A stretch of 32,000 bases of DNA from Gammaproteobacteria bacterium (GCA_020846135.1 JADLEK010000014.1:17719-49718), one strand, 5' to 3'. Counted from the stretch's first letter, positions 5,231-32,000 are shown. Numbers and translations are program-made. Notes: a model not told the origin generated them from the sequence alone.

Positions 5231-6040
5231 TCAGGGATCGTAGCGACCCCGGCAGGCGTTCAACAGAATGGTCAGGACCGCCAGATTGCCTTGGATACTG
5301 CTGATCTTGGTGGGGACTTGGCCGGTAGCGGGGTAGCGACGAGTGGTGGGCAATTCGAGACAGCGATAGCCCAGTTTTGGCGCTCGGTAGGACAGATAGG
5401 CCAGCAGTTCGTAAGTCAAGAAGATGTCCCTGAACGGGGCGACTTTAGGATCGAACAGCAGTTTGCGGCTATACGCTCTGAATCCCTGGGTGGTGTCGGT
5501 CCAGTGAAACCCGGAACAAAAGCTCAGCAATGGCGCATGGACCCAACGAATAGCAAATTCGCGAAATTTCGGCGTGTTTTCGCCAACCCCGCCGGGGATA
5601 TAGCGTGAGGCTTGGACGAAATCCGCGCCGTTTTGCAGGGCGTTGATAAATCGGGGGATGGCGGCGGGATCGTCCTTGTTGTTGCCGTCAATGGTGACAA
5701 TGCCTGCATAGCCCTGTCCAAGGGCGAAGGCATAGGCGCAACGAAGTTGGGCGCTCAGCTTGCCGGGTCCGGTTTTGACCAACAGACCGCGTACACCCTG
5801 AGCTTGAAGTGCAACTGTGTTCAGCGAACCGTCGGTGCTGCCGCCGTCCACAATCAAAATATCCGCCAGATTCTGAATTCCAAGAGTCGCCATTCGGTCG
5901 AGCAGCTTTCCAATCCGCTCGCCTTCGTTAATGACCGGAATGACAATGCACCACGGCTGACCTTGACCTAGCCATAAACGGGTTTCAAAGGCGGGCACTT
6001 GCCAAGTGGCGCGGATTTCCGGGGTTATCTCAGCGTTCAT
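5231..6040 (-). CDS. Family 2 glycosyltransferase, soluble DPM1-like
   Basis: GT2 hallmarks are present: CIVIPVINEGERI, ILIVDGGSTDGS and VTIDGNNKDDPAAIP. There is no C-terminal TM helix. The ATG at 6040 (MNAEITPE) is preferred over the track start at 6079. Confidence 0.8.
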   Translation of the reverse strand: MNAEITPEIRATWQVPAFETRLWLGQGQPWCIVIPVINEGERIGKLLDRMATLGIQNLADILIVDGGSTDGSLNTVALQAQGVRGLLVKTGPGKLSAQLRCAYAFALGQGYAGIVTIDGNNKDDPAAIPRFINALQNGADFVQASRYIPGGVGENTPKFREFAIRWVHAPLLSFCSGFHWTDTTQGFRAYSRKLLFDPKVAPFRDIFLTYELLAYLSYRAPKLGYRCLELPTTRRYPATGQVPTKISSIQGNLAVLTILLNACRGRYDP

Positions 6041-6103
6041 CGTTTTAATCCATATGGATACACAAATAAATTCAACCAAAAAATGGTATAGAAGCCGTAT
6101 CGC

Positions 6104-7712
6104 TCATTTGATATTCGCTACTGATATATTCTGAAATGAATCAGTATTGGGGTCATAAACAATTGCTCCTGCATATTCATATACATTGGATATTAGAAAC
6201 GTGCTTTTTACATTCAGCAATACTCCAGCGCACGCTTTCCTACCAACAACCAAAGATTTTAATTGGTCTGCGTTCTTGATTCCTTCAAAAACGCCTCGAT
6301 TAAGAGAAAGATTAACCCATCCTCGCACGGATGAATTCAAAGCATAGAGTACACAGGGTTCAGAGTATGAAGGAAGCTGATCGAGGAGTAACTTATTATT
6401 TTTTAAAGCCACACTAACGTCTATTTCTCTTGCTCGTACTTGAAAAATAACCAAGTTTGATATTAACCCAATTATTAGCAAAGAAGTCAGTAAAATGCGG
6501 ATTTTGATCTTGGCAATATGAATGCTTAGCGCAATCAGGAGCATCATTGGAACAATCGCTTTGAGTCTATCAAAACTATAGCTATATGCATGATTCATAA
6601 GCAGAAAATTTTCTAATAGAGGAGTAGATGATGCAATTAGCATAAGAACTATTACTCTTTTATTAATTATAGCATTACGATAACGCCAGATTATATACGT
6701 CGAAATAGTTGCAACTAAAGGAAGAATCCCATAAGACATGATGTGTCCATATCCTAAGTGAAATGGAGTAGAACGTAGGCCACTACGAGCAAAAAATCGG
6801 CGAGATAAAGCATAAATAGTATTTTCTGCACCAGCGACCCAGATAAAGTGAAGTAAAAACAATATAATTGCGATAACCGATGAAAAAATAATACCAAATG
6901 TAAGCCAATACAGTTTGTTATTTTTATTTTTGCGAGCCAAGTAAAAAATAATCCCAGCATTAGTCACAGCCGTTAAATAGCCAGTCCATTCTGTCATTGC
7001 ACCTAAAAAAGTTGCCCCTATCAATATTAAAGCAGTTGTTGTGACTGGACTGGACTGGACTGGAACCATAATAGCCGATTAACTTAAATAGCGCTATAAG
7101 CTGAGTTAACCAAAAGATTTGAAACAAAGAGTGGTGCCAATAAATTACTCCATGAGAGTAAAGTGCTTCATTAGAAAATATGTAAAATAAGGTAAGACTT
7201 ACAACTGCTACAGCACGGCTCACTGAAGATAATCCGAAATTTGTTAAGAATACACTCACCACCCATGCAAAAAGAAAAGTTGCTATCAAATGAATGAGCA
7301 TATTAAAAAATGCCAAGTTTTCTATCGTCAAATCATAACCAGTAGCCTCAAAATATAGATAAGGAATGAAAAAACCCAATGGAGAAAAAGAGGTATAATA
7401 GTAGTTACCATAGCTATCCGGTACTGTCGCGCCCCACGGGATGTTTTTATCCTCTGGATTGCCTAAACTTACAATGGGTAAAAATTTGTGAACACCGAAA
7501 GGAGTCGATTGAAGTGCTTTAATTGTGAGAAGAACGTGGTAACTAGCATCTATGTTATCGATAACATATCGATTACTATCATGATGGGTAGTTCGCAAAA
7601 AATATGAGAGCAAGAATAACGATAAAATACCAACAAAGATAAAAGTCAAAAGGAGAGAAGAAAAACTACGATATTGCGAACCGCCATTAGATACGCTCAA
7701 ATCGTGATTCAT
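6104..7712 (-). pseudogene. Polytopic membrane protein with GT-C-like architecture, split into two frames at a pentanucleotide repeat (candidate phase-variable gene, OFF state)
   Basis: The upstream fragment is 7712..6960 (ATG at 7712, RBS AAGGAA, MNHDLSVSNGG...). The downstream fragment is 7069..6104 in the +1 frame. Both are rich in hydrophobic helices and end with a C-terminal soluble domain of about 110 aa. The span is 1609 nt, so adding 5 nt gives one 537-codon ORF. GC is about 33%. Confidence 0.7.
7043..7064 (-). repeat. Pentanucleotide tandem repeat: (GACTG)x4+GA on the + strand, (TCCAG)x4+TC on the coding strand
   Basis: Read directly from gtGACTGGACTGGACTGGACTGGAacc. It sits exactly where the two reading frames of the split membrane-protein gene overlap. 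Confidence 0.95.
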
Positions 7713-7726
7713 TTGATATTCCTTTT

Positions 7727-8080
7727 TTACGCACGCACAGTAATCAAAACCACGCCGACCATCACCAGTACAATGCCCGCGATGGTCGTCCAGTGAAAAG
7801 GCTCCCGGAATAGCACCAGAGATAACACAGCGACGGTTGCCACCGCTCCCGATGTCAATATTGGATGCGCCACGTTCAAGGGCAGCACCGACAACGCGGC
7901 GGCATACAGTAGGAATGCGCCGCCGTACAACGCCAGTCCCAGCCAGAACGGCCAATTGCTCAAGGCGCCAATAGGATCGCTGAGCGAAGGAAACTGACGC
8001 GGCGGCAGCATCGCGAATTTGACCAGCACACTGGCCGATGCGTTGGCGGCAATCCCGGAGAGCAGAATCAACCATTTCAT
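7727..8080 (-). CDS. Small four-TM EamA/SMR-like protein, ArnE/ArnF-type (putative undecaprenyl-phosphate-sugar flippase subunit)
   Basis: 117 aa with four hydrophobic helices and an LPLNVAHPIL motif, as in ArnE/F-type proteins. Its start overlaps the upstream gene's stop by ATGA. Confidence 0.7.
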   Translation of the reverse strand: MKWLILLSGIAANASASVLVKFAMLPPRQFPSLSDPIGALSNWPFWLGLALYGGAFLLYAAALSVLPLNVAHPILTSGAVATVAVLSLVLFREPFHWTTIAGIVLVMVGVVLITVRA

Positions 8081-8919
8081 ACCGATGCTCCGTTTCCAGC
8101 CCAGTCGTCCCGGTAATAACGAATCGCGACTTGCAAGGCGCGCTCGACAGCTTGCAGCGGCGGCTCTTGTTTGGCAGCCAGCATTTCAATCGTCACGATC
8201 TGATCCGGTAGTGTGGCGTTCAAAGCTCGGCTCGCCGCGTGATGATCGCAACCGCCATCGCCCAGAGTTGCCAAATCCGGTTCGCTGGCATGGACATGAC
8301 CGATCAGAGTGGAATAGCTGGCTATGACTGCTTCGGGCGCCTCGTCGTTGAGGGCCATTGCCCCGGTGTCGAGTTGCATCCGAATCGCCGGATGATCAAC
8401 CTGCTTCACTATCGCCGCTGTTTCGGCGCTGTTGGTCATGAAATTGGCGCCGTAGCAGGGCGGATTGGGTTCCAGGCAGACCCGCACTCCGTGAACGCTG
8501 GCGCTATTGCCCAAGCGCCGGAAGAACTCCACAGCCACGGTTTCGGTTTGAGCATCGCTGAGGCTGCCGCGATCCCGATTTTTCGGGGAGCCGAACACCA
8601 GTCGGGTCGCGCCCAGACCGCCGCCAATCCGGCACACCGCGTCCAGATGCGCCAACATGGCGGTTTGTATCTCAGGGCTGGCGAACAGGTTCAGGCCAGT
8701 GGTTCCAAACAGCAACGCCTGCATTCCGGTGATTTCGATGCCGCGCTTGCGCCACCAATCGCTTACCCGGCTCATATCGTCCGGGGTCGCTTGCCGGGGA
8801 TCGGGGAAATACTTGCCGGGGGCAATGTCTATGGCGTCTACGTTGTATTGATGCAGCAGATCCGCCACCGCTTCGTCATCGCGCACGTCCCAAGCGATAT
8901 TGGAGATGGCGATTCTCAT
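8077..8919 (-). CDS. Sugar phosphate isomerase/epimerase, xylose-isomerase-like TIM barrel
   Basis: From the ATG at 8919 (MRIAISNIAWD...). It shows the pattern typical of the AP-endonuclease-2/xylose-isomerase TIM family (LVFGSPKNR, VCLEPNP, HVHASE). It has ATGA overlaps at both ends. The track start at 9018 is an extension. Confidence 0.7.
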   Translation of the reverse strand: MRIAISNIAWDVRDDEAVADLLHQYNVDAIDIAPGKYFPDPRQATPDDMSRVSDWWRKRGIEITGMQALLFGTTGLNLFASPEIQTAMLAHLDAVCRIGGGLGATRLVFGSPKNRDRGSLSDAQTETVAVEFFRRLGNSASVHGVRVCLEPNPPCYGANFMTNSAETAAIVKQVDHPAIRMQLDTGAMALNDEAPEAVIASYSTLIGHVHASEPDLATLGDGGCDHHAASRALNATLPDQIVTIEMLAAKQEPPLQAVERALQVAIRYYRDDWAGNGASV

Positions 8920-9719
8920 TGGCCCATTCCCGCGTTTTTCAGAGTGACCGGTTCCGATTGCGCATAGGCCCGAATCGCCAGTAGCGTTTCCCGCTTGCTG
9001 TACTGATATGCGCCGCAACCGCCGAATAGCGCGGCGTGTTTGGATTGGAAATCGTAGCAGGCCGGTGGATTGGCGAGGGTGTTTTGAAACTCCCGGCCAA
9101 ATCCATGTTGGGCGACTTCGGCGACGCTAATCGGCTCGGCGGTTAAGTGGACAAATGAAAGTTGCGCCTGCAATGCGGTTTGAATGTCGTACCAGAGATT
9201 GACCATTGGATAGAACTGGAACACGCCACGGCTCTCAATGGCGTCCAGATTATTCTGATTCAGGAAATCGAAAATAACGTTCTTGCGTAAACCAGGACCA
9301 ACCAGTCCCGGCAGCCGCACGATCAAATGCCGGGGAAAGTGGGACTCGACAAAGGTTTCCAAATACCGGCGATGCAGGCCATAAGGTTGCAAGCCGGTTT
9401 CATCAACCGCTGTGTCCTCGGTGACGCCAAATGGAATCTTGAATACGTCTACGGTGCTGATGAGGATAAATTCTTGGGTTTTTATTTCCCTAAGATTATT
9501 TTTTAACTCATTTATGTTATTTAGATCAGCATCAGGATTTTTGTTTGCAATCCATTTCTGGGCTGGAGCAGCGCAGCAAACTGTGATCGGGAATACTTTA
9601 CCAAATCCGTCTGAGAAATTTTCTCGACCTAACAGTGTTGATGAATGGCATTGTCTAGCTATAGAGCTTCCAACAAACCCTTTTGCCCCAATGATTAACA
9701 TATTGTCATCTAAGTTCAT
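8916..9719 (-). CDS. NAD(P)-dependent epimerase/dehydratase-family SDR (atypical)
   Basis: From the ATG at 9719 (MNLDDNMLIIGAKGFVGSS), which carries the Rossmann GxxGxxG. LISTVDVF and PYGLHRRYLE align with the S...YxxxK signature, but R replaces K. The 5' third of the gene is AT-rich and the remainder is GC-rich. Confidence 0.7.
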   Translation of the reverse strand: MNLDDNMLIIGAKGFVGSSIARQCHSSTLLGRENFSDGFGKVFPITVCCAAPAQKWIANKNPDADLNNINELKNNLREIKTQEFILISTVDVFKIPFGVTEDTAVDETGLQPYGLHRRYLETFVESHFPRHLIVRLPGLVGPGLRKNVIFDFLNQNNLDAIESRGVFQFYPMVNLWYDIQTALQAQLSFVHLTAEPISVAEVAQHGFGREFQNTLANPPACYDFQSKHAALFGGCGAYQYSKRETLLAIRAYAQSEPVTLKNAGMGQ

Positions 9720-25228: not shown

Positions 25229-25561
25229 TTACGACCACATCGGATAGCGTTGATGCAGGTAGCGTTGTTCGGCGATCAAGACCGTGAAGGGAATTTCCTG
25301 ATGCAGGAACAAGGCGACTTCGCCGTTTTGCGCCCGCACCACGGTGCCTTCAATAGCGACTGCAGCGCTGCGCTGACACCGCAGGATGCCCTTGATCAGA
25401 TCATGTGGGTTCGGAGGATCTACACCGACCACCGCATAGCGCAAGCCCCGGGCGGAAATGTCGAGGACCGCGCAGGTTTGTCCAGCGCATTCAAATTTTG
25501 GCCGCTCCGGGAATGGGTAGCGAATCCGGTGATACTGGCGACGTTCATCATCCGCAGCCAT
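25229..25561 (-). CDS. PilZ-domain protein (stand-alone), copy 2
   Basis: From the ATG at 25561. It has RQYHR (RxxxR) and DISARG (DxSxxG) c-di-GMP-binding motifs. Length is 110 aa. It begins 4 nt after the stop of copy 1. Confidence 0.75.
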   Translation of the reverse strand: MAADDERRQYHRIRYPFPERPKFECAGQTCAVLDISARGLRYAVVGVDPPNPHDLIKGILRCQRSAAVAIEGTVVRAQNGEVALFLHQEIPFTVLIAEQRYLHQRYPMWS

Positions 25562-25565
25562 AGGC

Positions 25566-25916
25566 TTATCCAGTCCGCGCCCGATAATGGGCGAGCAGGT
25601 AACGCTCTTCGCCACGCAGAACGGTAAAGGGAATTTCACTATCCGGCATATAGAGCGCGATTTCGCCCTCCTGAATCCGAACGACCGAGCCGCGTACTGG
25701 CGCTTGCGCCCGATCCCGAAATCGCACCAGCCCCTCGATCTGATCGCCAAGAGCGAGCCGTGGTTGCCAGTCATTGACAATGCAGCGCAATCCCCGCACT
25801 GAACAGTCCACGACCTCGTAATGGTGTTCGCCGATGACCAGCAACGGTCGTTCGGCGCGTGGAAAATGGAGACGATAGTTCTCGCGTTTTTCCAGCTCGG
25901 CGGCGGGATCGGACAT
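25566..25916 (-). CDS. PilZ-domain protein (stand-alone), copy 1
   Basis: From the ATG at 25916. It has RENYR (RxxxR) and DCSVRG (DxSxxG). Length is 116 aa. It starts 5 nt after the xseA stop. Confidence 0.75.
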   Translation of the reverse strand: MSDPAAELEKRENYRLHFPRAERPLLVIGEHHYEVVDCSVRGLRCIVNDWQPRLALGDQIEGLVRFRDRAQAPVRGSVVRIQEGEIALYMPDSEIPFTVLRGEERYLLAHYRARTG

Positions 25917-25921
25917 GGCGA

Positions 25922-27184
25922 TCAGCATCCTGGCGACTGAGGATGAGTAACTAATTCTGACCATGAGTCTAGCGCAGAAACCGCCTTAATTTCACAGCGC
26001 AGGCAACCTTCACCTAGAAGAGTTTCTATCGTATCGCCGATCTCAACTGCGCTGGCTCGTTGCACAATCCTGCCCTCCGGATAACGGCGAACAATCGCAT
26101 AACCGCGCTGTAGAGTCGCCAGTGGACTTAGGGTGTGCAGGCGACCACTCACCTGCTGCAAGCGTTGGGCAGCGGTTTGCAGCCGCCAGCGCAGCGCCTG
26201 CCGTAACCGTTGTTCCAGTTCGTCAAGGCGCTGGGTGCGATTCCGCAACCGGCGGTGCGGGTGTTGCCGGGCCAGGCGTTGCGCCAGTTGTTCCAGCTGT
26301 TGCCGCTGGTCGGTCAGCCGGCGGCGCAGTGTGTGCGCCAGCCGCTCCTCCAGCGCCCGGATCTGGCGCAGCCCGTCCTGCCGGTCAGGACCGGCCAGTT
26401 CCGCCGCGGCAGTAGGGGTGGCGGCCCGCAGGTCAGCGGCGAAATCGGCAATAGTCACGTCGGTTTCATGACCGACCCCGGTCACTAGCGGGATAGCGCA
26501 ATCGGCAATCGCTCGCGCCACACCCTCGGCATTGAACGCCTGCAAATCCTCCAGCGCGCCGCCGCCCCGCACCAGCAACAGCACAGCGCATTCCCGGCGC
26601 TTTGAAGCCAGCCGAATTGTGGCGGCGATGCGCTCTGCCGCGCCGTCGCCCTGCACCGGGACCGGATAGAGCAACACCGGCGTCTGCGGACAGCGGCGGC
26701 GCAGGGTGGTCAGCACATCATGCAGGGCTGCGCCGGTCGGCGAGGTGATGACCCCGATCCGGTGCGGGAAGGGCGGCAGCGGCTGTTTGCGATCCGGCGC
26801 GAACAGCCCTTCCTGTTCCAGCCGCAGTCGCAATTCATCGTAAGCCTGCCGCAACGCGCCAGCGCCAGCCTCCTCGACAAACTCGACAATGAGCTGAAAC
26901 TCGCCACGGGATTCGTACAGGCTGACCCGGCCTCGGGCCAACACCTGCTGGCCATTGCGCGGGCCGTCGCGAAACAGGAAGGCGCGGTTCTGGAACAGGG
27001 CGCAGCGCAGCTGGGCGCTGGCATCCTTCAGCGAGAAGTAGACGTGTCCTGAGCTGGGACGGGACAGATTGGAGACTTCACCCTGCACCCAGATCATCGG
27101 AAACACGTCTTCCAGCAGGTATCGCGCCTCCTGATTCAGGCGGGAAACGGTGTAGACAGTGCGAGTGGGGGAGGGATCGCTCAC
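25922..27184 (-). CDS. xseA: Exodeoxyribonuclease VII large subunit
   Basis: GTG start. YTVSRLNQEARYLLEDVFPMIWVQGEVSNLSRPSSGHVYFSLKD is the characteristic XseA OB-fold N-terminus. Length is 420 aa. Confidence 0.9.
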   Translation of the reverse strand: MSDPSPTRTVYTVSRLNQEARYLLEDVFPMIWVQGEVSNLSRPSSGHVYFSLKDASAQLRCALFQNRAFLFRDGPRNGQQVLARGRVSLYESRGEFQLIVEFVEEAGAGALRQAYDELRLRLEQEGLFAPDRKQPLPPFPHRIGVITSPTGAALHDVLTTLRRRCPQTPVLLYPVPVQGDGAAERIAATIRLASKRRECAVLLLVRGGGALEDLQAFNAEGVARAIADCAIPLVTGVGHETDVTIADFAADLRAATPTAAAELAGPDRQDGLRQIRALEERLAHTLRRRLTDQRQQLEQLAQRLARQHPHRRLRNRTQRLDELEQRLRQALRWRLQTAAQRLQQVSGRLHTLSPLATLQRGYAIVRRYPEGRIVQRASAVEIGDTIETLLGEGCLRCEIKAVSALDSWSELVTHPQSPGC

Positions 27185-27187
27185 GGT

Positions 27188-28570
27188 TCAGGGTTTTCCG
27201 GATGCGGGCTGATTTTTCATCCGCGAAGGATCGAAGAAGCCGGCAGCGCTGATTTCGATAGCGGCAATCGCAAAGTTAAGGTTCTGCCCGACCTTCAGAC
27301 CCATGGTGGCGATGCCGATCACGGTGCCGTCGTGCAAAATTACCGGGCCGCCGCTGTTGCCGGGGCTGATCGGCGCGGAAATCTGGATATAACGCACCCC
27401 GTCGATCTCGCGCAACCCGCTGATCACGCCAGTGGAAAAGGTGCCTTCCAGACCGTAGGGATTGCCGATCACGAACACATCCCGGCCAATCAGATCCTGG
27501 CTGTAGGTGGCGTTGAGGATAAAGCGGTCGGCGCCGTTCAGCGAGGTGGATAATAAGGCCAGATCGGGCGACTTGCCGCGTCGGCGAATTTTGGCGACCG
27601 ATTCGCGCCCGCCGCATTTCACCGCCAGGTTATCGGCCTTGTCGATCACATGATCATTGGTAATCACCAGCCCATCGCTCGAAACCAGCAGGCCACTGCC
27701 CAGATTGTCGGTTTTGCCATTGCGGGTCGTGACGATCAGGCAGGTGATCGGCAGGCTGCGCCGGTAAATGCGTTGCCCCAGATTGTCGTTGCCGGCAGGC
27801 GCGGGCTGGGGAGGGGACGATGCCGGTGGCGGAGTAGCCACGGGTTTGCCCAGACTTGCCCCCGGTTGCAGTGCGTTGGGCAAAGAGTTCACGGCAGGCT
27901 GCGGGGGGGGCGCGGCTGTCGGAACGGGAGGAATACCGGGGTTGGCCAGAGAGGTCGGCGGAGTTTGTGGTTGCACGGCTTGCAGAGCCTGCAATGCGCC
28001 GATTCGGACCGCGTCAGCGGGATCGGTGGTCGCCAGTTGTCGCAGTTGTTCCGTCAGCGTCGCCGGGTCCGGGGCGAACTGGTAGGCGTTGGCGAAGGCC
28101 CCGGCGGCGCGCTGGGTATCGCCAGTCTGACCATAGACCTGACCCAGGGTGAACCAGGTGGCCGACTGGCCGGGTGCCAGCGACAGCGCATAGACCGCCA
28201 GGCGCTCGGCCTCTTTGAGCCGGCGCAGCAGCAGGTAGGTCAGGCTGAGTTGATTGGCGATCTCCGGATCGGCGGGATCGGCGATGAATGCCTGACGGAA
28301 CGCGGCCAGGGCTTCCTTGAACCGGTTGCCAGCCAGATGATCGAGGCCCTGCTGGCGAAACGGTCGGGCCTGGGTGGCATCGCCGGGTTCCGGGCGGCGC
28401 TGGTTGTCCAGTTGCTCGCGGAAGGTCAGTACGCCAGCCTGATCCTTGGTGGCGGCGGCGGCGATCATCTGCTGGACGTAATAGTCAATGGTGTCGTACT
28501 GGCCGGCCCACACCGCCGTTGCGCTCGCCAGCGTCAGCAGTACTGCCGCCAGTGTCCGTCGGAGATTCAT
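27188..28570 (-). CDS. Secreted TPR-domain / trypsin-like (S1, DegP-type without PDZ) serine protease fusion
   Basis: The signal peptide is MNLRRTLAAVLLTLASATAVWA. It is followed by about 180 aa of TPR-like repeats and then a Pro-rich linker of about 70 aa. The protease domain has the His (TNDHV), Asp (SPDLALL) and Ser (GNSGGP) triad. Confidence 0.8.
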   Translation of the reverse strand: MNLRRTLAAVLLTLASATAVWAGQYDTIDYYVQQMIAAAATKDQAGVLTFREQLDNQRRPEPGDATQARPFRQQGLDHLAGNRFKEALAAFRQAFIADPADPEIANQLSLTYLLLRRLKEAERLAVYALSLAPGQSATWFTLGQVYGQTGDTQRAAGAFANAYQFAPDPATLTEQLRQLATTDPADAVRIGALQALQAVQPQTPPTSLANPGIPPVPTAAPPPQPAVNSLPNALQPGASLGKPVATPPPASSPPQPAPAGNDNLGQRIYRRSLPITCLIVTTRNGKTDNLGSGLLVSSDGLVITNDHVIDKADNLAVKCGGRESVAKIRRRGKSPDLALLSTSLNGADRFILNATYSQDLIGRDVFVIGNPYGLEGTFSTGVISGLREIDGVRYIQISAPISPGNSGGPVILHDGTVIGIATMGLKVGQNLNFAIAAIEISAAGFFDPSRMKNQPASGKP

Positions 28571-29277
28571 GGCGCAGTGCGGGGAGCGCGGGAGGAACTG
28601 GCCGGATTGGCCATGGGCGCCATTTCGGAATGGGGGGCCAGGGGCGGCACGATCACGGTCGCTACCGGCAATTGATAAAGCTGCAAGGTGGCCAGCGCCG
28701 CATTGCGCAGGGTATCGGCGGCTTCGTTCTCGGCGATGTTGCGCAAAATTTCCTCGGCCCGCATCGCGTTCTGGGCATAGCGATAGGTGTTAGCCAGTGC
28801 GCCAATCGCCCGTCGGGCGTCGTTTTGCAGACCATAGACCTGGGCCAACTGGAACCAGGCCACCGCCCGCGCCGGCTCCAGGGATAGCGCCTGTTGCAGG
28901 GCGCGTTCGGCCTCCGGCCACTGACCCAGCTTGCGATGGACCAGGCCCAGATGATTGGCGGCTTCGACGTTGCCGGGATCGAGTTGGACTGCCTGCTGAA
29001 AGGCCATCAGTGCGGTCTGTTGATCGTCCTGGCGCAGGGCCGCCAGTCCGCGTTGCAGAGCGGCGCTGGCCGCTGCAGGATCGGACGAAGCCGGGCGCGG
29101 GTTTTGCTCCAGCATCCGCTGCATCGCCACGATGCCGTGTTCATCGTTGGCGGAGGCCAACTCAATCATTTGCTGCACATAGTAGCGGTTGCTTTCCAGA
29201 TTCTGGGCGAACGCCGGGCTGGCGGCTAATAACCACGCCGCCAGCAGCAACACCGGTTTGAGTAGAGTGTTGTTCAT
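28567..29277 (-). CDS. Secreted TPR-repeat protein, paralogue of the N-terminal half of the downstream protease
   Basis: The signal peptide is MNNTLLKPVLLLAAWLLAASPAFA. It is collinear with the protease's TPR region (YYVQQMI..., AERxxxxALSLxP, WFxLxQVYG). Its stop overlaps the protease start (ATGA). Confidence 0.8.
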   Translation of the reverse strand: MNNTLLKPVLLLAAWLLAASPAFAQNLESNRYYVQQMIELASANDEHGIVAMQRMLEQNPRPASSDPAAASAALQRGLAALRQDDQQTALMAFQQAVQLDPGNVEAANHLGLVHRKLGQWPEAERALQQALSLEPARAVAWFQLAQVYGLQNDARRAIGALANTYRYAQNAMRAEEILRNIAENEAADTLRNAALATLQLYQLPVATVIVPPLAPHSEMAPMANPASSSRAPRTAP

Positions 29278-29299
29278 CCCACGCCTGCCTGCCGAAGTC

Positions 29300-29806
29300 T
29301 CACAAATCCTTGATGGCGTCGTACTGCCGTTCCAGACTCAGCCGTTTGGCGTCGGCTTGGGCGGCGGTGAGTTGTCCCCGCTCCAGTTGGGTCTCGAACT
29401 GCTGGATATTGCCGGTCAATTGCTGCTGTTTGCGCCGCAGTTCCGCCGTCTGCCGTTCAGTCATGGCCTTGGAGCTTTTTAACTGATTGATCCGGTTGGC
29501 AAGCGCCCGGTTTCTGGCCTTGAGCGAAGCCAGTTGCCGGCGTTGCGCCGCGACATCATCAGCTTTCATCGCCCGTTGGTCTTCCAGATAGTCACCTTCC
29601 TCGCGCAGGGCGCGCAACTGGTTCAGCGATTCGCCCCGCTGTTCGTCCAGAATTTGCTGGCGGGCGTCGTAGTCGCCGGACGAGAGGCCGCGCACCCCGC
29701 CGAAAAAGCCGCCGGTGTGGGGATCGTTGCTGGGATCGGTCGCACAGCCGGCCAGGATGAGCAGGCTCAGAGCGCCGCCCGATAGAGTTGTCGTAATGGT
29801 TTTCAT
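29300..29806 (-). CDS. Coiled-coil lipoprotein
   Basis: The ATG at 29806 is preceded by GGAGG. It has a lipobox (LLILAGC) followed by about 140 aa of Q/R/E/L-rich heptad-like sequence. Confidence 0.75.
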   Translation of the reverse strand: MKTITTTLSGGALSLLILAGCATDPSNDPHTGGFFGGVRGLSSGDYDARQQILDEQRGESLNQLRALREEGDYLEDQRAMKADDVAAQRRQLASLKARNRALANRINQLKSSKAMTERQTAELRRKQQQLTGNIQQFETQLERGQLTAAQADAKRLSLERQYDAIKDL

Positions 29807-29878
29807 AATGCGGACCTCCGGTTCCCGGACTCCCGCACCCGGCGGGAGGGGGAACAATACGGGATAGCGGGTTCAGAT

Positions 29879-30535
29879 TCAGATCGACATGCCGTCGTAC
29901 ATTTGCTGCAAGCTGGCCACGTTCTGGCTGGATTGCTGACGGGTCTCCTTCAGTTTGACCACATTCGATTCGAGTTGTCGGCTGTATTGGTCCTGCGGAC
30001 CGCGCTGTTGCCGGGTTTCGCTGTACACCTGATTGGTGTCGGCCAACTGCTGTTCAGCCAGTGAATTAACTTTTTTGGCGGTCGCCAATTGTTTTTCCAC
30101 GGTCGCCTTTTGCCGGACCAGCGCATCGCGGCTGATCTTGCCAGCCCGGTATTCCCGCGCCAGTCGCCGTGATTCGCGATCCAGTTGGGCGATGTCCTGA
30201 TAAATCTGCTGGTTCTGGGCGTCGGCTTCGCGAATGAACTCCTGATTACGCTGAATTTCAGCGACCAGGAAATCCTCTTGGCGGGCGTATTGGGCCTTGC
30301 GGTCAGCAACCGAGCTGCCAATGCCAGCGCCAATCAGTCCACCGGCCGCCGCGCCGATCAGGGTGCCCGTGGTATTGCCGCCAATGGCGTAGCCGAGACC
30401 GGCGCCAATTAGCGCGCCGACTCCCGCGCCCTGGGCTACGGTGGTTTGCTGGTCGTTCATACCAGCGCAACCGGACAGCGATGCGGCGATCACAGTGGCG
30501 ATGAGAAGATTTTTTATAGCATAGCGATGGAACAT
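29879..30535 (-). CDS. Glycine-zipper plus coiled-coil lipoprotein
   Basis: From the ATG at 30535. It has a lipobox (AASLSGC) and a glycine-zipper segment (GAGVGALIGAGLGYAIGGNTTGTLIGAAAGGLIGAGIG). A long Q-rich predicted coiled coil follows. Confidence 0.75.
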   Translation of the reverse strand: MFHRYAIKNLLIATVIAASLSGCAGMNDQQTTVAQGAGVGALIGAGLGYAIGGNTTGTLIGAAAGGLIGAGIGSSVADRKAQYARQEDFLVAEIQRNQEFIREADAQNQQIYQDIAQLDRESRRLAREYRAGKISRDALVRQKATVEKQLATAKKVNSLAEQQLADTNQVYSETRQQRGPQDQYSRQLESNVVKLKETRQQSSQNVASLQQMYDGMSI

Positions 30536-30643
30536 AAGCGTCTCCGGGAGGTAATCGAGGATGAAAGGGCTTGAGTCAGGAAAGTTTGGGACGCGCCGGA
30601 CGGGAAAGCAATGCACAGGCGTGACGAAATATGGAACTGACGG

Positions 30644-31477
30644 TTACCGGTGGCACTGGGTGATGAGCAGGGCGATCAGGGTCGTGATGGCCGTCGTCAG
30701 CGAGCCAAAAGCAATCGCCAGAGTCGCGTAGGTTTTGAGCTTTTCGTGCCGGTCCAGTGGTGGCGGAGTGGGTTGACCAGTGCCGTGGGCAGGAGGCGTA
30801 CTGGACGGTGCAATAGGAATCAGCGGAGCAGAGGGTGGTTGTGTGATCGGAACAGGAACCGGCGTTGTGGGCAAGACCCGGCTCGGCGGCAGAGGCAGTG
30901 GAGTTATCGGTCGATTGATGGGACGCGGCTGCGGGCTGGACGGCGTTGCGGGCGGATGTCGGAGGCTGGGCGTTTCATCCAGCACATCTACCCCAAACTG
31001 CCGGCTGAGTTCGGCCAGATTGGCTTTCAGTCCCTCACCTTTGGCCCGCACCTTCCACGCACCGTTATAGCGATACAGTTCGGCTACCAGCAACGAACGA
31101 CTTTCAATCGGCTCGACCAGCCGGAACCGGACCGCATAATCGCCGGCAGTGGGGGCGGCGATAAAGATGGCGTCGGTCATGGCCTGAAACGTGCCGCTGC
31201 TCAGGGTGGCGGTAAAGATGCACTTGCGCACCGCGCCGGGCAGGGCGTCGAGGTTGATCAGGAACGCCGGACGATCCGGATCGATGCGGATCGCGTCACC
31301 GGGGCTGGCCGGCTGGTTGTAGAACACAAACCAGTCGTCAGCTAGAACCCGGTCATGGGCATCGAGCGCGAAGCAGGCGAAATCGAGTTCGCCGGGGATG
31401 TTGTTCCAGAGCAGGCGAATTTGCACCCGGCCGGACGCGGCCAGTGGCGCATTGGCGCCTTTAATCAGTTCTTTCAT
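30644..31477 (-). CDS. TerD-like domain protein with Pro-rich linker and C-terminal TM anchor
   Basis: The N-terminal roughly 165 aa follow the TerD pattern: ELDFACFALDAHDRVLADDWFVFYNQ and ELYRYNGAWKVRAKGEGLKANLAELSRQFGV. A P/T/S-rich region of about 70 aa comes next. The protein ends in the TM helix TYATLAIAFGSLTTAITTLIALLI. The start is either ATG 31477 or GTG 31486. Confidence 0.7.
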   Translation of the reverse strand: MKELIKGANAPLAASGRVQIRLLWNNIPGELDFACFALDAHDRVLADDWFVFYNQPASPGDAIRIDPDRPAFLINLDALPGAVRKCIFTATLSSGTFQAMTDAIFIAAPTAGDYAVRFRLVEPIESRSLLVAELYRYNGAWKVRAKGEGLKANLAELSRQFGVDVLDETPSLRHPPATPSSPQPRPINRPITPLPLPPSRVLPTTPVPVPITQPPSAPLIPIAPSSTPPAHGTGQPTPPPLDRHEKLKTYATLAIAFGSLTTAITTLIALLITQCHR

Positions 31478-31543
31478 GCCGTACACGGAAATCCATCTCA
31501 GGGAATGCGAAATTATACAACGGGACAGGCCACCCCGACGCTG

Positions 31544-32000
31544 TTACGGCCGGCCAGTACTCGACAGCAGCGGAGTTCGAATGCTGACTGCGTTCCAGTC
31601 AGCGGGCGGACGCTGTTGCAACGCCCCGCGCAGCCGGTTTACCAGTTGTGGGCCGCTCAGGTTCAGCTCGGCGACCGGGGTGCGCGGTTTCTTCACGTGC
31701 TTGAGGTCGGCCCGGCCCAGCAGATTTAACGGTTGGCGGGTTGCTGCCAGAATGAAGGTTTCAGCGCCGGGCGGCGGATCGGGCGCATAGCGGAGTTTTT
31801 TGCCGCCGGCGGGCGGGAACGTGACCGGTTCGTTGGCGCGCACCGGATAATTGGTGAGCAACTGGCCAGTCTGACCGGATGAATGGATGAAATACAGATT
31901 CAGATAGCCGGGCGCGGCAGTTTGAAAATCCAGTCGGACCGGTGCGCCGATATGTAATACCGGCTGTTCGCAGCGCAGCATCACCGTAAATTTAGCCTTG
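31544..32000 (-). CDS. DUF4384-domain protein, C-terminal part only (5' end outside window)
   Basis: The frame stays open upstream of the track's GTG start (...KAKFTVMLRCEQP) to the window edge. LHIGAPVRLDFQTAAPGYLNLYFIHSSGQTGQLLTNYP...PPGAETFILAAT matches the DUF4384 pattern. Confidence 0.65.
   Translation of the reverse strand, partial: KAKFTVMLRCEQPVLHIGAPVRLDFQTAAPGYLNLYFIHSSGQTGQLLTNYPVRANEPVTFPPAGGKKLRYAPDPPPGAETFILAATRQPLNLLGRADLKHVKKPRTPVAELNLSGPQLVNRLRGALQQRPPADWNAVSIRTPLLSSTGRP

Follow-up and report, generated by a model that had tools for sequence, protein, structure and literature searches.

The gene cluster

The subject of this study is a cluster of six genes at 27188-32000 of a 32,000-nt stretch of DNA from a gammaproteobacterium (GCA_020846135.1, JADLEK010000014.1:17719-49718). 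The whole stretch is here called the window, and positions are counted from its first letter. The host is Candidatus Contendobacter sp., a member of the Competibacteraceae. Two of the genes, G4 and G3, encode small lipoproteins that stay together in many genomes, and this pair and the proteases in its company are what we mainly deal with.

The initial annotation, made from the sequence alone, had recognised six minus-strand genes with short spacers and had considered all their products as targeted to the envelope. The open reading frames (ORFs), G1 to G6, are indeed present on this strand, and the spacers, read from G6 to G1, amount to 57 nt (66 nt with the ATG start of G5), 105, 72 and 22 nt, followed by a 4-bp overlap, in line with the annotated values. 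Lipoboxes in G3, G4 and G6, Sec signal peptides in G1 and G2 and a transmembrane (TM) helix in G5 agree with the envelope location. The domain calls, i.e., trypsin-like protease and TPR in G1, TPR in G2, glycine zipper in G4, TerD in G5 and DUF4384 in G6, are backed by Pfam. The genes and their parts are:

27188-28570, minus strand: G1, TPR-protease fusion, 460 amino acids (aa)
27263-27721, minus strand: protease domain of G1
about 27746-27970, minus strand: Pro-rich linker of G1
about 27971-28483, minus strand: TPR region of G1
28567-29277, minus strand: G2, TPR protein, 236 aa
29300-29806, minus strand: G3, coiled-coil lipoprotein, 168 aa from the ATG at MKTITT
29879-30538, minus strand: G4, glycine-zipper lipoprotein, 219 aa from MFHRY
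29891-30280, minus strand: C-terminal three-helix bundle of G4
30308-30439, minus strand: glycine zipper of G4
30644-31477, minus strand: G5, TerD protein, 277 aa with the ATG start, 280 aa with a GTG start further upstream (31486)
30662-30718, minus strand: C-terminal TM helix of G5
about 30737-30978, minus strand: Pro-rich linker of G5
30995-31471, minus strand: TerD domain of G5
31544 to past 32000, minus strand: G6, DUF4384 protein, C-terminal 151 residues in the window

The lipoprotein pair G4-G3

The comparison set comprised 86 related loci, which are cited by their L numbers where necessary; a scan of a genome collection, seeded on an alignment of six G3 sequences, returned 41 loci from Competibacteraceae. 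G4 and G3 are adjacent in all 61 genome loci and in those metagenome loci that are long enough, G4 being immediately upstream of G3. In the Competibacteraceae, the order G4-G3-G2-G1 is collinear in 39 of 39 loci of sufficient length and occurs in at least three different flanking contexts. None of the Competibacteraceae loci found is without the module, and their synteny is partly conserved. Its universal core is the G4-G3 pair.

Both proteins have a lipobox (LAGC in G3, LSGC in G4) and an Ala at position +2 after the lipid-modified Cys. Because of this Ala, which by the E. coli rule directs lipoproteins to the outer membrane, G3 and G4 are predicted to be outer-membrane lipoproteins.

The Pfam matches of G3 are limited to generic coiled coils. 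The protein is better described by a motif, C-x(2-6)-[DN]P-xx-GGFFGG-xx-G-xx-G-x-Y-xx-R, encoded at 29660-29728 and followed by an antiparallel helical bundle. In the alignment of its homologues, the common form is C-x(2-6)-[DN]P-xx-GG[FL][FLI]GG-xx-G-xx-G-x-Y-xx-R, again with a coiled coil after the motif. The 235 representative homologues (sequence clusters) are all 160-190 aa long. AlphaFold2 models G3 as an antiparallel bundle of helices 45-111 (67 residues), 117-142 and 148-167, with a predicted local distance difference test score (pLDDT) of 82.6.

G4, for which 303 homologues were found, matches Gly-zipper_Omp (5.6e-07) and YMGG (2.9e-06) in Pfam. The AlphaFold2 model has helices at 87-131, 137-179 and 184-216 with a pLDDT above 90; the zipper is of low confidence, which is what one would expect if it is embedded in a membrane or oligomeric. 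Paralogy of G3 and G4 was also considered. In hhalign they have only the lipoprotein signal peptide in common and therefore are no detectable paralogues. Sequence searches of the PDB with G4 and the G3 profile retrieved only generic glycine-zipper and coiled-coil matches, and in Foldseek comparisons of both AlphaFold2 models with the PDB nothing reached E <= 0.001, the structures retrieved being designed helical bundles and MukF.

A short motif, D[AD]LEG (typically SLDALEGSGLGD), is found in the inter-helix loop of 20 out of 32 G3-like lipoproteins and in 0 out of 1358 background ORFs. The ORFs concerned are in L053-L072, L075-L077, L083 and L084. It is not present in the G3 of Competibacteraceae or Hahella nor in L078. 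Three copies are seen at the N-terminus of the vWA protein of Sedimenticola (L053, around residues 40-66). The motif could be a docking or a cleavage site.

Relatives outside the Competibacteraceae

A G4 homologue immediately upstream of a G3 homologue was also found in about 20 genomes outside the Competibacteraceae. Among the Proteobacteria, the carriers include Sedimenticola, Thioalkalivibrio, Chromatiales, Rhodocyclaceae and an alphaproteobacterium; further ones are Desulfomicrobium, Desulfacinum, Desulfobacterium, Geobacteraceae, Desulfuromonadaceae and Syntrophobacteraceae. Clustering of the neighbouring genes revealed a conserved operon of seven genes:

position 1: vWA protein, about 712 aa, signal peptide
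position 2: ABC ATPase, about 265 aa
position 3: FtsX/MacB-type permease, about 610 aa, four TM helices, periplasmic domain of about 440 aa
position 4: FGE-sulfatase protein with C-terminal coiled coil, about 549 aa, signal peptide
position 5: G4-like glycine-zipper lipoprotein
position 6: G3-like coiled-coil lipoprotein
position 7: S41 peptidase with PDZ, about 360 aa

All seven genes are present in 14 loci, and other loci show a part of the operon (L053:889-9646 in Sedimenticola selenatireducens DSM 17993, NZ_ATZE01000026; L054-L072, L083, L086). Metagenome contigs and Ectothiorhodospira variabilis have it as well. No annotation of the operon was found in the databases searched, nor a paper on it in the literature searched. 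Between Sedimenticola and Desulfobacterota, the proteins of the operon share 50-58% identity, which is no lower than between gammaproteobacteria and points to horizontal spread.

Rarer than the seven-gene form are variants with other partners. In L078, a secreted TPR-CHAT protease lies directly upstream of the pair and S41 is missing. In Hahella aquimaris (CP132203, L085:1-5212), a PP2C gene and a 981-aa Ser/Thr kinase precede the pair and S41 follows; this copy stands back to back with divergent genes for bpMoxR, bpX5 and bpX6 (L085:5413-11544). The latter are Pfam families of the MoxR-vWA-beta-propeller ternary systems. In Desulfotignum, a Tubulin_2-GYF protein and a repeat protein are encoded upstream of the pair and, again, S41 downstream.

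The pair thus remains constant in loci in which the protease beside it varies: S41, TPR-S1, secreted TPR-CHAT or C14 caspase, four families that are unrelated or only distantly related. A secreted protease is nearly always adjacent to the pair, and a partner with an FGE-sulfatase domain is frequent. All partners carry signal peptides or lipoboxes. Neither TerD nor DUF4384 was found in any of the relatives outside the Competibacteraceae that were compared.

The protease G1 and its TPR partner G2

The protease of the Competibacteraceae is G1. Pfam assigns its residues 291-420 to Trypsin_2 (2e-26), next to TPR families, and detects no PDZ domain. The catalytic triad H307/D336/S406, already noted as intact in the initial annotation, is unchanged in 32 of 32 homologues. 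Among the curated families of NCBIfam, those that match the protease domain best are Do/HtrA, DegS and DegQ. The scores are 104 bits for Do/HtrA (TIGR02037, cut-off 416) and 82 bits for DegS (cut-off 423).

G2 is a TPR protein (TPR_1, 7.6e-14). The initial annotation had taken the TPR regions of G2 and G1 as paralogous, and with an identity of 38-40% (residues 12-229 of G1) they are. As read from the sequences, both proteins start with a Sec signal peptide; that of G2 ends in a cleavage site (AFA-Q) and lacks a lipobox. With the NlpI model, G2 reaches 20 bits against a cut-off of 250. The two genes share an ATGA overlap of 4 bp, which is also seen in L004 and L010, and G1 appears to be translationally coupled to its TPR paralogue.

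The accessory genes G5 and G6 and the caspase neighbour

G5 matches TerD (PF02342) over residues 6-164 with 1.2e-24 and 87.3 bits, the cut-off being 25.3. A single hydrophobic helix near the C-terminus (residues 254-272) is preceded by DRHEKLK, which, according to the positive-inside rule, would place the TerD domain in the cytoplasm. The TM segment is kept among the homologues (KLKTYATLAIAFGSLTTAITT..TQC). Most of these have a further Pro-rich periplasmic tail of 40-60 aa, which the window G5 lacks; since P0005 and P0011 share the short form, it is not a sequencing artefact. The Ca-binding motif GDNxTGxGxGDDE is not found in G5 or its Competibacteraceae homologues in an alignment judged by eye; in the same alignment, actinobacterial matches show it in their second TerD domain.

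The order G5-G4-G3-G2-G1 recurs at TerD homologues of 50-57% identity, whose flanking contexts differ from that of the window; G6 is present at some of them and missing at others. Distant homologues have unrelated neighbourhoods: the gene stands alone in L006 and in L005 belongs to a different cluster. There (L005:10001-16227, Chromatiales GCA_023156155), the gene for a TerD homologue with a TM anchor and 40% identity stands at the head of an envelope cluster; the further products are a MotA/ExbB protein of 370 aa, a TPR protein and three proteins without annotation. This weakly hints that TerD-TM proteins are perhaps general inner-membrane accessories of envelope systems.

The DUF4384 match of G6 is 6.5e-10 (Pfam). 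The same locus on longer contigs, identified by an exact sequence match of G5, shows the flanks beyond the window end and thereby the complete G6 (L003:9353-9934). Its N-terminus lies outside the window, as had been stated, yet only 42 residues are missing and G6 is not the C-terminal domain of a larger effector; it is a 193-aa lipoprotein with the lipobox IVGC.

The same extension uncovered, just past window position 32000 and divergent from G6, a gene for a secreted, catalytically intact caspase (Peptidase_C14) with an FGE-sulfatase domain (L003:7833-9245, minus strand). This fits the initial remark that DUF4384 travels with caspases. The dyad H127/C179 is retained in 20 of 20 homologues. 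Of 29 Competibacteraceae loci, 21 have the gene on the upstream side of the module, some of them as fragments. These 29 loci, which have at least 3 kb upstream of G4, also underlie the counts for TerD (6/29) and DUF4384 (8/29). DUF4384 always lies between the caspase-FGE gene and G5 or G4. Because of the low counts, G5 and G6 have to be regarded as facultative additions: they are optional, lineage-specific accessories and not core. The position of G6 beside the caspase gene fits the record of DUF4384 as an orthocaspase accessory domain (PMC3501461; PMC7475262), and G6 probably is an accessory tied to its caspase neighbour.

TerD-TM homologues adjoin the module in several Competibacteraceae in two different arrangements; in L039, TerD is on the far side of the caspase gene. 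In one metagenome-assembled genome (L008:11078-12800 / L039:5517-7107), the caspase-FGE gene between TerD and G4 appears to be in fragments, which reflects either a frameshift or an assembly error. Alignment of the region upstream of G4 across loci shows a conserved Shine-Dalgarno sequence and, in species without TerD, a conserved intergenic block between the caspase gene and G4; none of this was found in the G5-G4 spacer of the window.

Surroundings of the cluster

The cluster is embedded in ordinary chromosome. Its GC content of 60-66% is that of its surroundings. The gene xseA begins 3 nt past the G1 stop; behind it lie two PilZ genes and then lpdA. Large polyketide synthase genes are further neighbours beyond the window end. 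The two small PilZ-domain genes (25229-25964) are arranged in tandem between lpdA and xseA, on the same strand and directly downstream of the cluster.

In about ten Competibacteraceae loci, a conserved, convergent trio of genes lies behind the module, downstream of G1 (L004:14663-20948, L008, L010). It encodes a 572-aa protein, a 796-aa FtsW/RodA/SpoVE-like protein and a 1058-aa protein, the first and the last without a Pfam match. In the window and in L012, xseA takes its place.

Remote from the cluster, at 6000-11300, the window contains an island of low GC content (33-45% versus about 60% elsewhere) with three ORFs without any Pfam match (6104-7069, 6960-8189, 9716-11335). Its neighbours are TRAP transporter genes as well as DAO and GT2 genes.

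Interpretation

What, then, is the cluster made for? We favour, with moderate confidence, the view that the window contains the Competibacteraceae version of a widespread, uncharacterised envelope module, in which the G4-G3 pair is a scaffold or adaptor that controls an exchangeable periplasmic protease. This role is suggested, largely by analogy, because the pair is constant, a protease is nearly always next to it and an FGE-sulfatase partner is frequent. The pair would form a helical scaffold or adaptor anchored in the outer membrane, which docks the protease and gates its activity. TPR domains could provide docking or choice of the substrate. The FGE-sulfatase domain has a C-type-lectin-like fold and might be responsible for ligand recognition. 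In the seven-gene form, an ABC mechanotransducer of the MacB/FtsX type, together with the vWA protein, would drive the pair from the inner membrane in a manner reminiscent of FtsEX-EnvC. The output would be regulated periplasmic proteolysis.

Several observations weigh against this view. Within 8-10 kb, no genes for vWA, ABC/FtsX or S41 were detected in the window and the 41 Competibacteraceae loci; therefore, the inner-membrane drive is either missing there or encoded elsewhere. PDB and Foldseek offered no solved or annotated homologue of G3 or G4 that could anchor a function. A scan for promoters and terminators, which concerns the operon structure in the window (25500-32000), performed no better than with shuffled sequences. 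Finally, the genome scan took in only G3 variants with the pattern GGFFGG[VMI][HRA]G.

The initial annotation had proposed a sensing or scaffold module with a protease effector at the envelope. This outline is supported; its framing as a six-gene, TerD-centred set is not. A TerD-centred envelope stress or defence system related to the ter operons can, of course, refer to the TerD domain well above the Pfam cut-off, to the TerD-TM homologues that adjoin the module in two arrangements and to the one that heads the MotA/ExbB and TPR cluster in Chromatiales. However, only G4-G3-G2-G1 is conserved as a set. The co-occurrence check that had been suggested for the six genes revealed TerD and DUF4384 as the least conserved ones, both missing outside the Competibacteraceae. 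No other ter gene, TerA, TerB, TerC, TerZ and TerY included, was found within 10 kb of G5 (L001-L004, L008, L010), and the canonical Ca-binding motif is missing. The locus census already largely refutes the TerD-centred model, which we consider very unlikely. What the initial annotation had missed is that the two coiled-coil lipoproteins are the universal core and that the relatives are equipped with a vWA protein, an ABC/FtsX motor and a protease of another kind.

Slightly less credit still is due to the idea that G1 is a plain housekeeping quality-control protease of the HtrA/DegP type with unrelated envelope proteins as neighbours. The best curated matches of its protease domain speak in favour, but their scores are far below the equivalog cut-offs, and a TPR domain is present in place of PDZ. 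Moreover, in 39/39 loci G1 follows G4-G3-G2 in strict collinearity and with translational coupling, and elsewhere the G4-G3 pair recruits unrelated proteases.

A more serious, though still unlikely, competitor sees in the same hardware a conflict system at the level of the envelope, be it for defence against phages, predators or toxins or for programmed cell death. FGE-sulfatase, vWA and TPR would sense a cue of the invader, and the protease would be the effector; the difference lies in the purpose, not in the anatomy. The distribution is patchy across phyla, with identities unrelated to phylogeny, as in horizontal transfer. The core stays the same, and both the proteases (S41, S1, caspase, CHAT) and the inputs (vWA, FGE-sulfatase, kinase/PP2C, Tubulin_2-GYF) are exchanged around it. 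The domain repertoire is that of the conflict systems of Kaur et al. 2020 (PMC7159879); Makarova and Koonin 2010 saw it around FtsZl1 (PMC2875224). Also, the Hahella copy has its bpMoxR/bpX genes at its back. Against all this, the PADLOC matches are generic and at domain level only, and the check for a defence island revealed neither defence nor mobile genes near the cluster, nor a deviating GC content at it. Presence in every Competibacteraceae locus found suits a core function of the lineage better than a variable defence island, and the locus is devoid of the MoxR, STAND or GTPase-type NTPase that defines the Kaur systems.

A bolder variant we regard as tentative, and as possible rather than probable. 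The G4-G3 pair would define an undescribed trans-envelope protease switch for periplasmic suicide or defence that has spread horizontally across Proteobacteria and Desulfobacterota. An input at the inner membrane, i.e., a MacB/FtsX-type ABC transporter with vWA, a kinase with PP2C or a tubulin-like GYF protein, would act through the lipoprotein pair and fire an exchangeable protease (S41, S1, caspase or CHAT), with the lectin-fold FGE-sulfatase protein as ligand sensor. The Competibacteraceae form would then be a motor-less derivative that has taken up a caspase and in some species also a TerD anchored in the membrane.

As to the purpose of the adaptor-protease module that we favour, envelope remodelling or stress response is rated slightly above defence because of the analogies discussed below, the strict conservation and partly kept synteny in Competibacteraceae and the ordinary chromosomal context. 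The patchy, horizontally spread distribution and the repertoire of swap-in domains are the reasons to favour conflict or defence.

If the favoured view is correct, an unannotated pair of small lipoproteins marks a whole class of systems for regulated periplasmic proteolysis. The repeated swaps of unrelated proteases round a constant scaffold would be a natural experiment in the targeting and control of periplasmic proteases, and the seven-gene form would add a protease as a new output to the FtsEX/MacB mechanotransduction family. The secreted orthocaspase-FGE-sulfatase proteins, long known as an architecture only, gain a concrete set of genomic partners. Cultured hosts are at hand: Sedimenticola selenatireducens DSM 17993, Hahella aquimaris, Ectothiorhodospira variabilis and Desulfacinum infernum DSM 9756.

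Comparison with known systems

The initial annotation could not equate the gene set with a described system, and PADLOC, NCBIfam, PDB and the searched literature did not change this. When the window proteins and the seven-gene operon were compared with PADLOC-DB 2.0, the trypsin domain matched RT-Protease_XI, the ABC ATPase mad3 and the caspase a generic caspase, which is nothing specific. NCBIfam gave no family-level assignment for G3, G4, G5, G6 or the vWA and FGE proteins, and no paper on the operon's domain combination was found in the searched literature.

Pairs of a lipoprotein adaptor and an S41 protease are NlpI-Prc of E. coli and LbcA-CtpA of P. aeruginosa; NlpI and LbcA are TPR lipoproteins. 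The likeness consists in the putative outer-membrane lipoprotein partner of a periplasmic protease, in the presence of TPR domains (here G2 and G1) and, in the relatives of the cluster, in an S41 C-terminal processing protease with PDZ. The lipoproteins here, however, are glycine-zipper and helical-bundle proteins without detectable homology to NlpI or LbcA, and the TPR protein G2 is no lipoprotein. Further, the protease of the window is S1, S41 being found only in relatives outside the Competibacteraceae.

FtsEX-EnvC, MacB and LolCDE are type VII ABC mechanotransducers (PMC7668044, PMC5985334). The seven-gene relatives resemble FtsEX-EnvC in having an ABC ATPase and an FtsX-type permease beside periplasmic coiled-coil proteins, much as FtsX clamps EnvC. 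In contrast to FtsEX-EnvC, there is no LytM or amidase partner, the output is a protease, and the Competibacteraceae version has no ABC/FtsX within 10 kb. The matches between the G3 profile and EnvC are of the generic coiled-coil type.

With the ter operons the cluster shares the TerD-family domain of G5, but G5 is tethered through a C-terminal TM helix, has neither the Ca-binding motif nor ter partners and is dispensable to the module. With HtrA, DegP, DegQ and DegS it shares the trypsin-like domain with a His/Asp/Ser triad, but G1 has no C-terminal PDZ and stays below the equivalog cut-offs.

The systems of Kaur et al. 2020 (PMC7159879) and of Makarova and Koonin 2010 (PMC2875224) have in common with the present ones vWA, FGE-sulfatase (FGS), caspase, trypsin and TPR, and also Ser/Thr kinase with PP2C, Tubulin_2 and GYF. 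Yet no MoxR, STAND or GAP1 NTPase is present in the window, the Competibacteraceae loci or the seven-gene operon; only in Hahella is bpMoxR adjacent, and there it is divergent. FtsX, S41 and glycine-zipper lipoproteins are not mentioned in either paper, and everything here is periplasmic.

Surveys of orthocaspases list the combination of Peptidase_C14 and FGE-sulfatase for 4.9% of bacterial metacaspases (Asplund-Samuelsson 2012, PMC3501461; PMC7475262). It is the same architecture as that of the divergent neighbour; here, however, the caspase is secreted and DUF4384 is a separate lipoprotein. A lipoprotein-protease module around caspase-FGE is not described in these surveys.

The parallels to FtsEX-EnvC and to NlpI-Prc/LbcA-CtpA are analogies, not homologies, and each of the families compared fails in at least one defining feature. 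The module would best be described as one of adaptor-controlled periplasmic proteolysis, and the chance is substantial that the family as a whole should be treated as a separate system.

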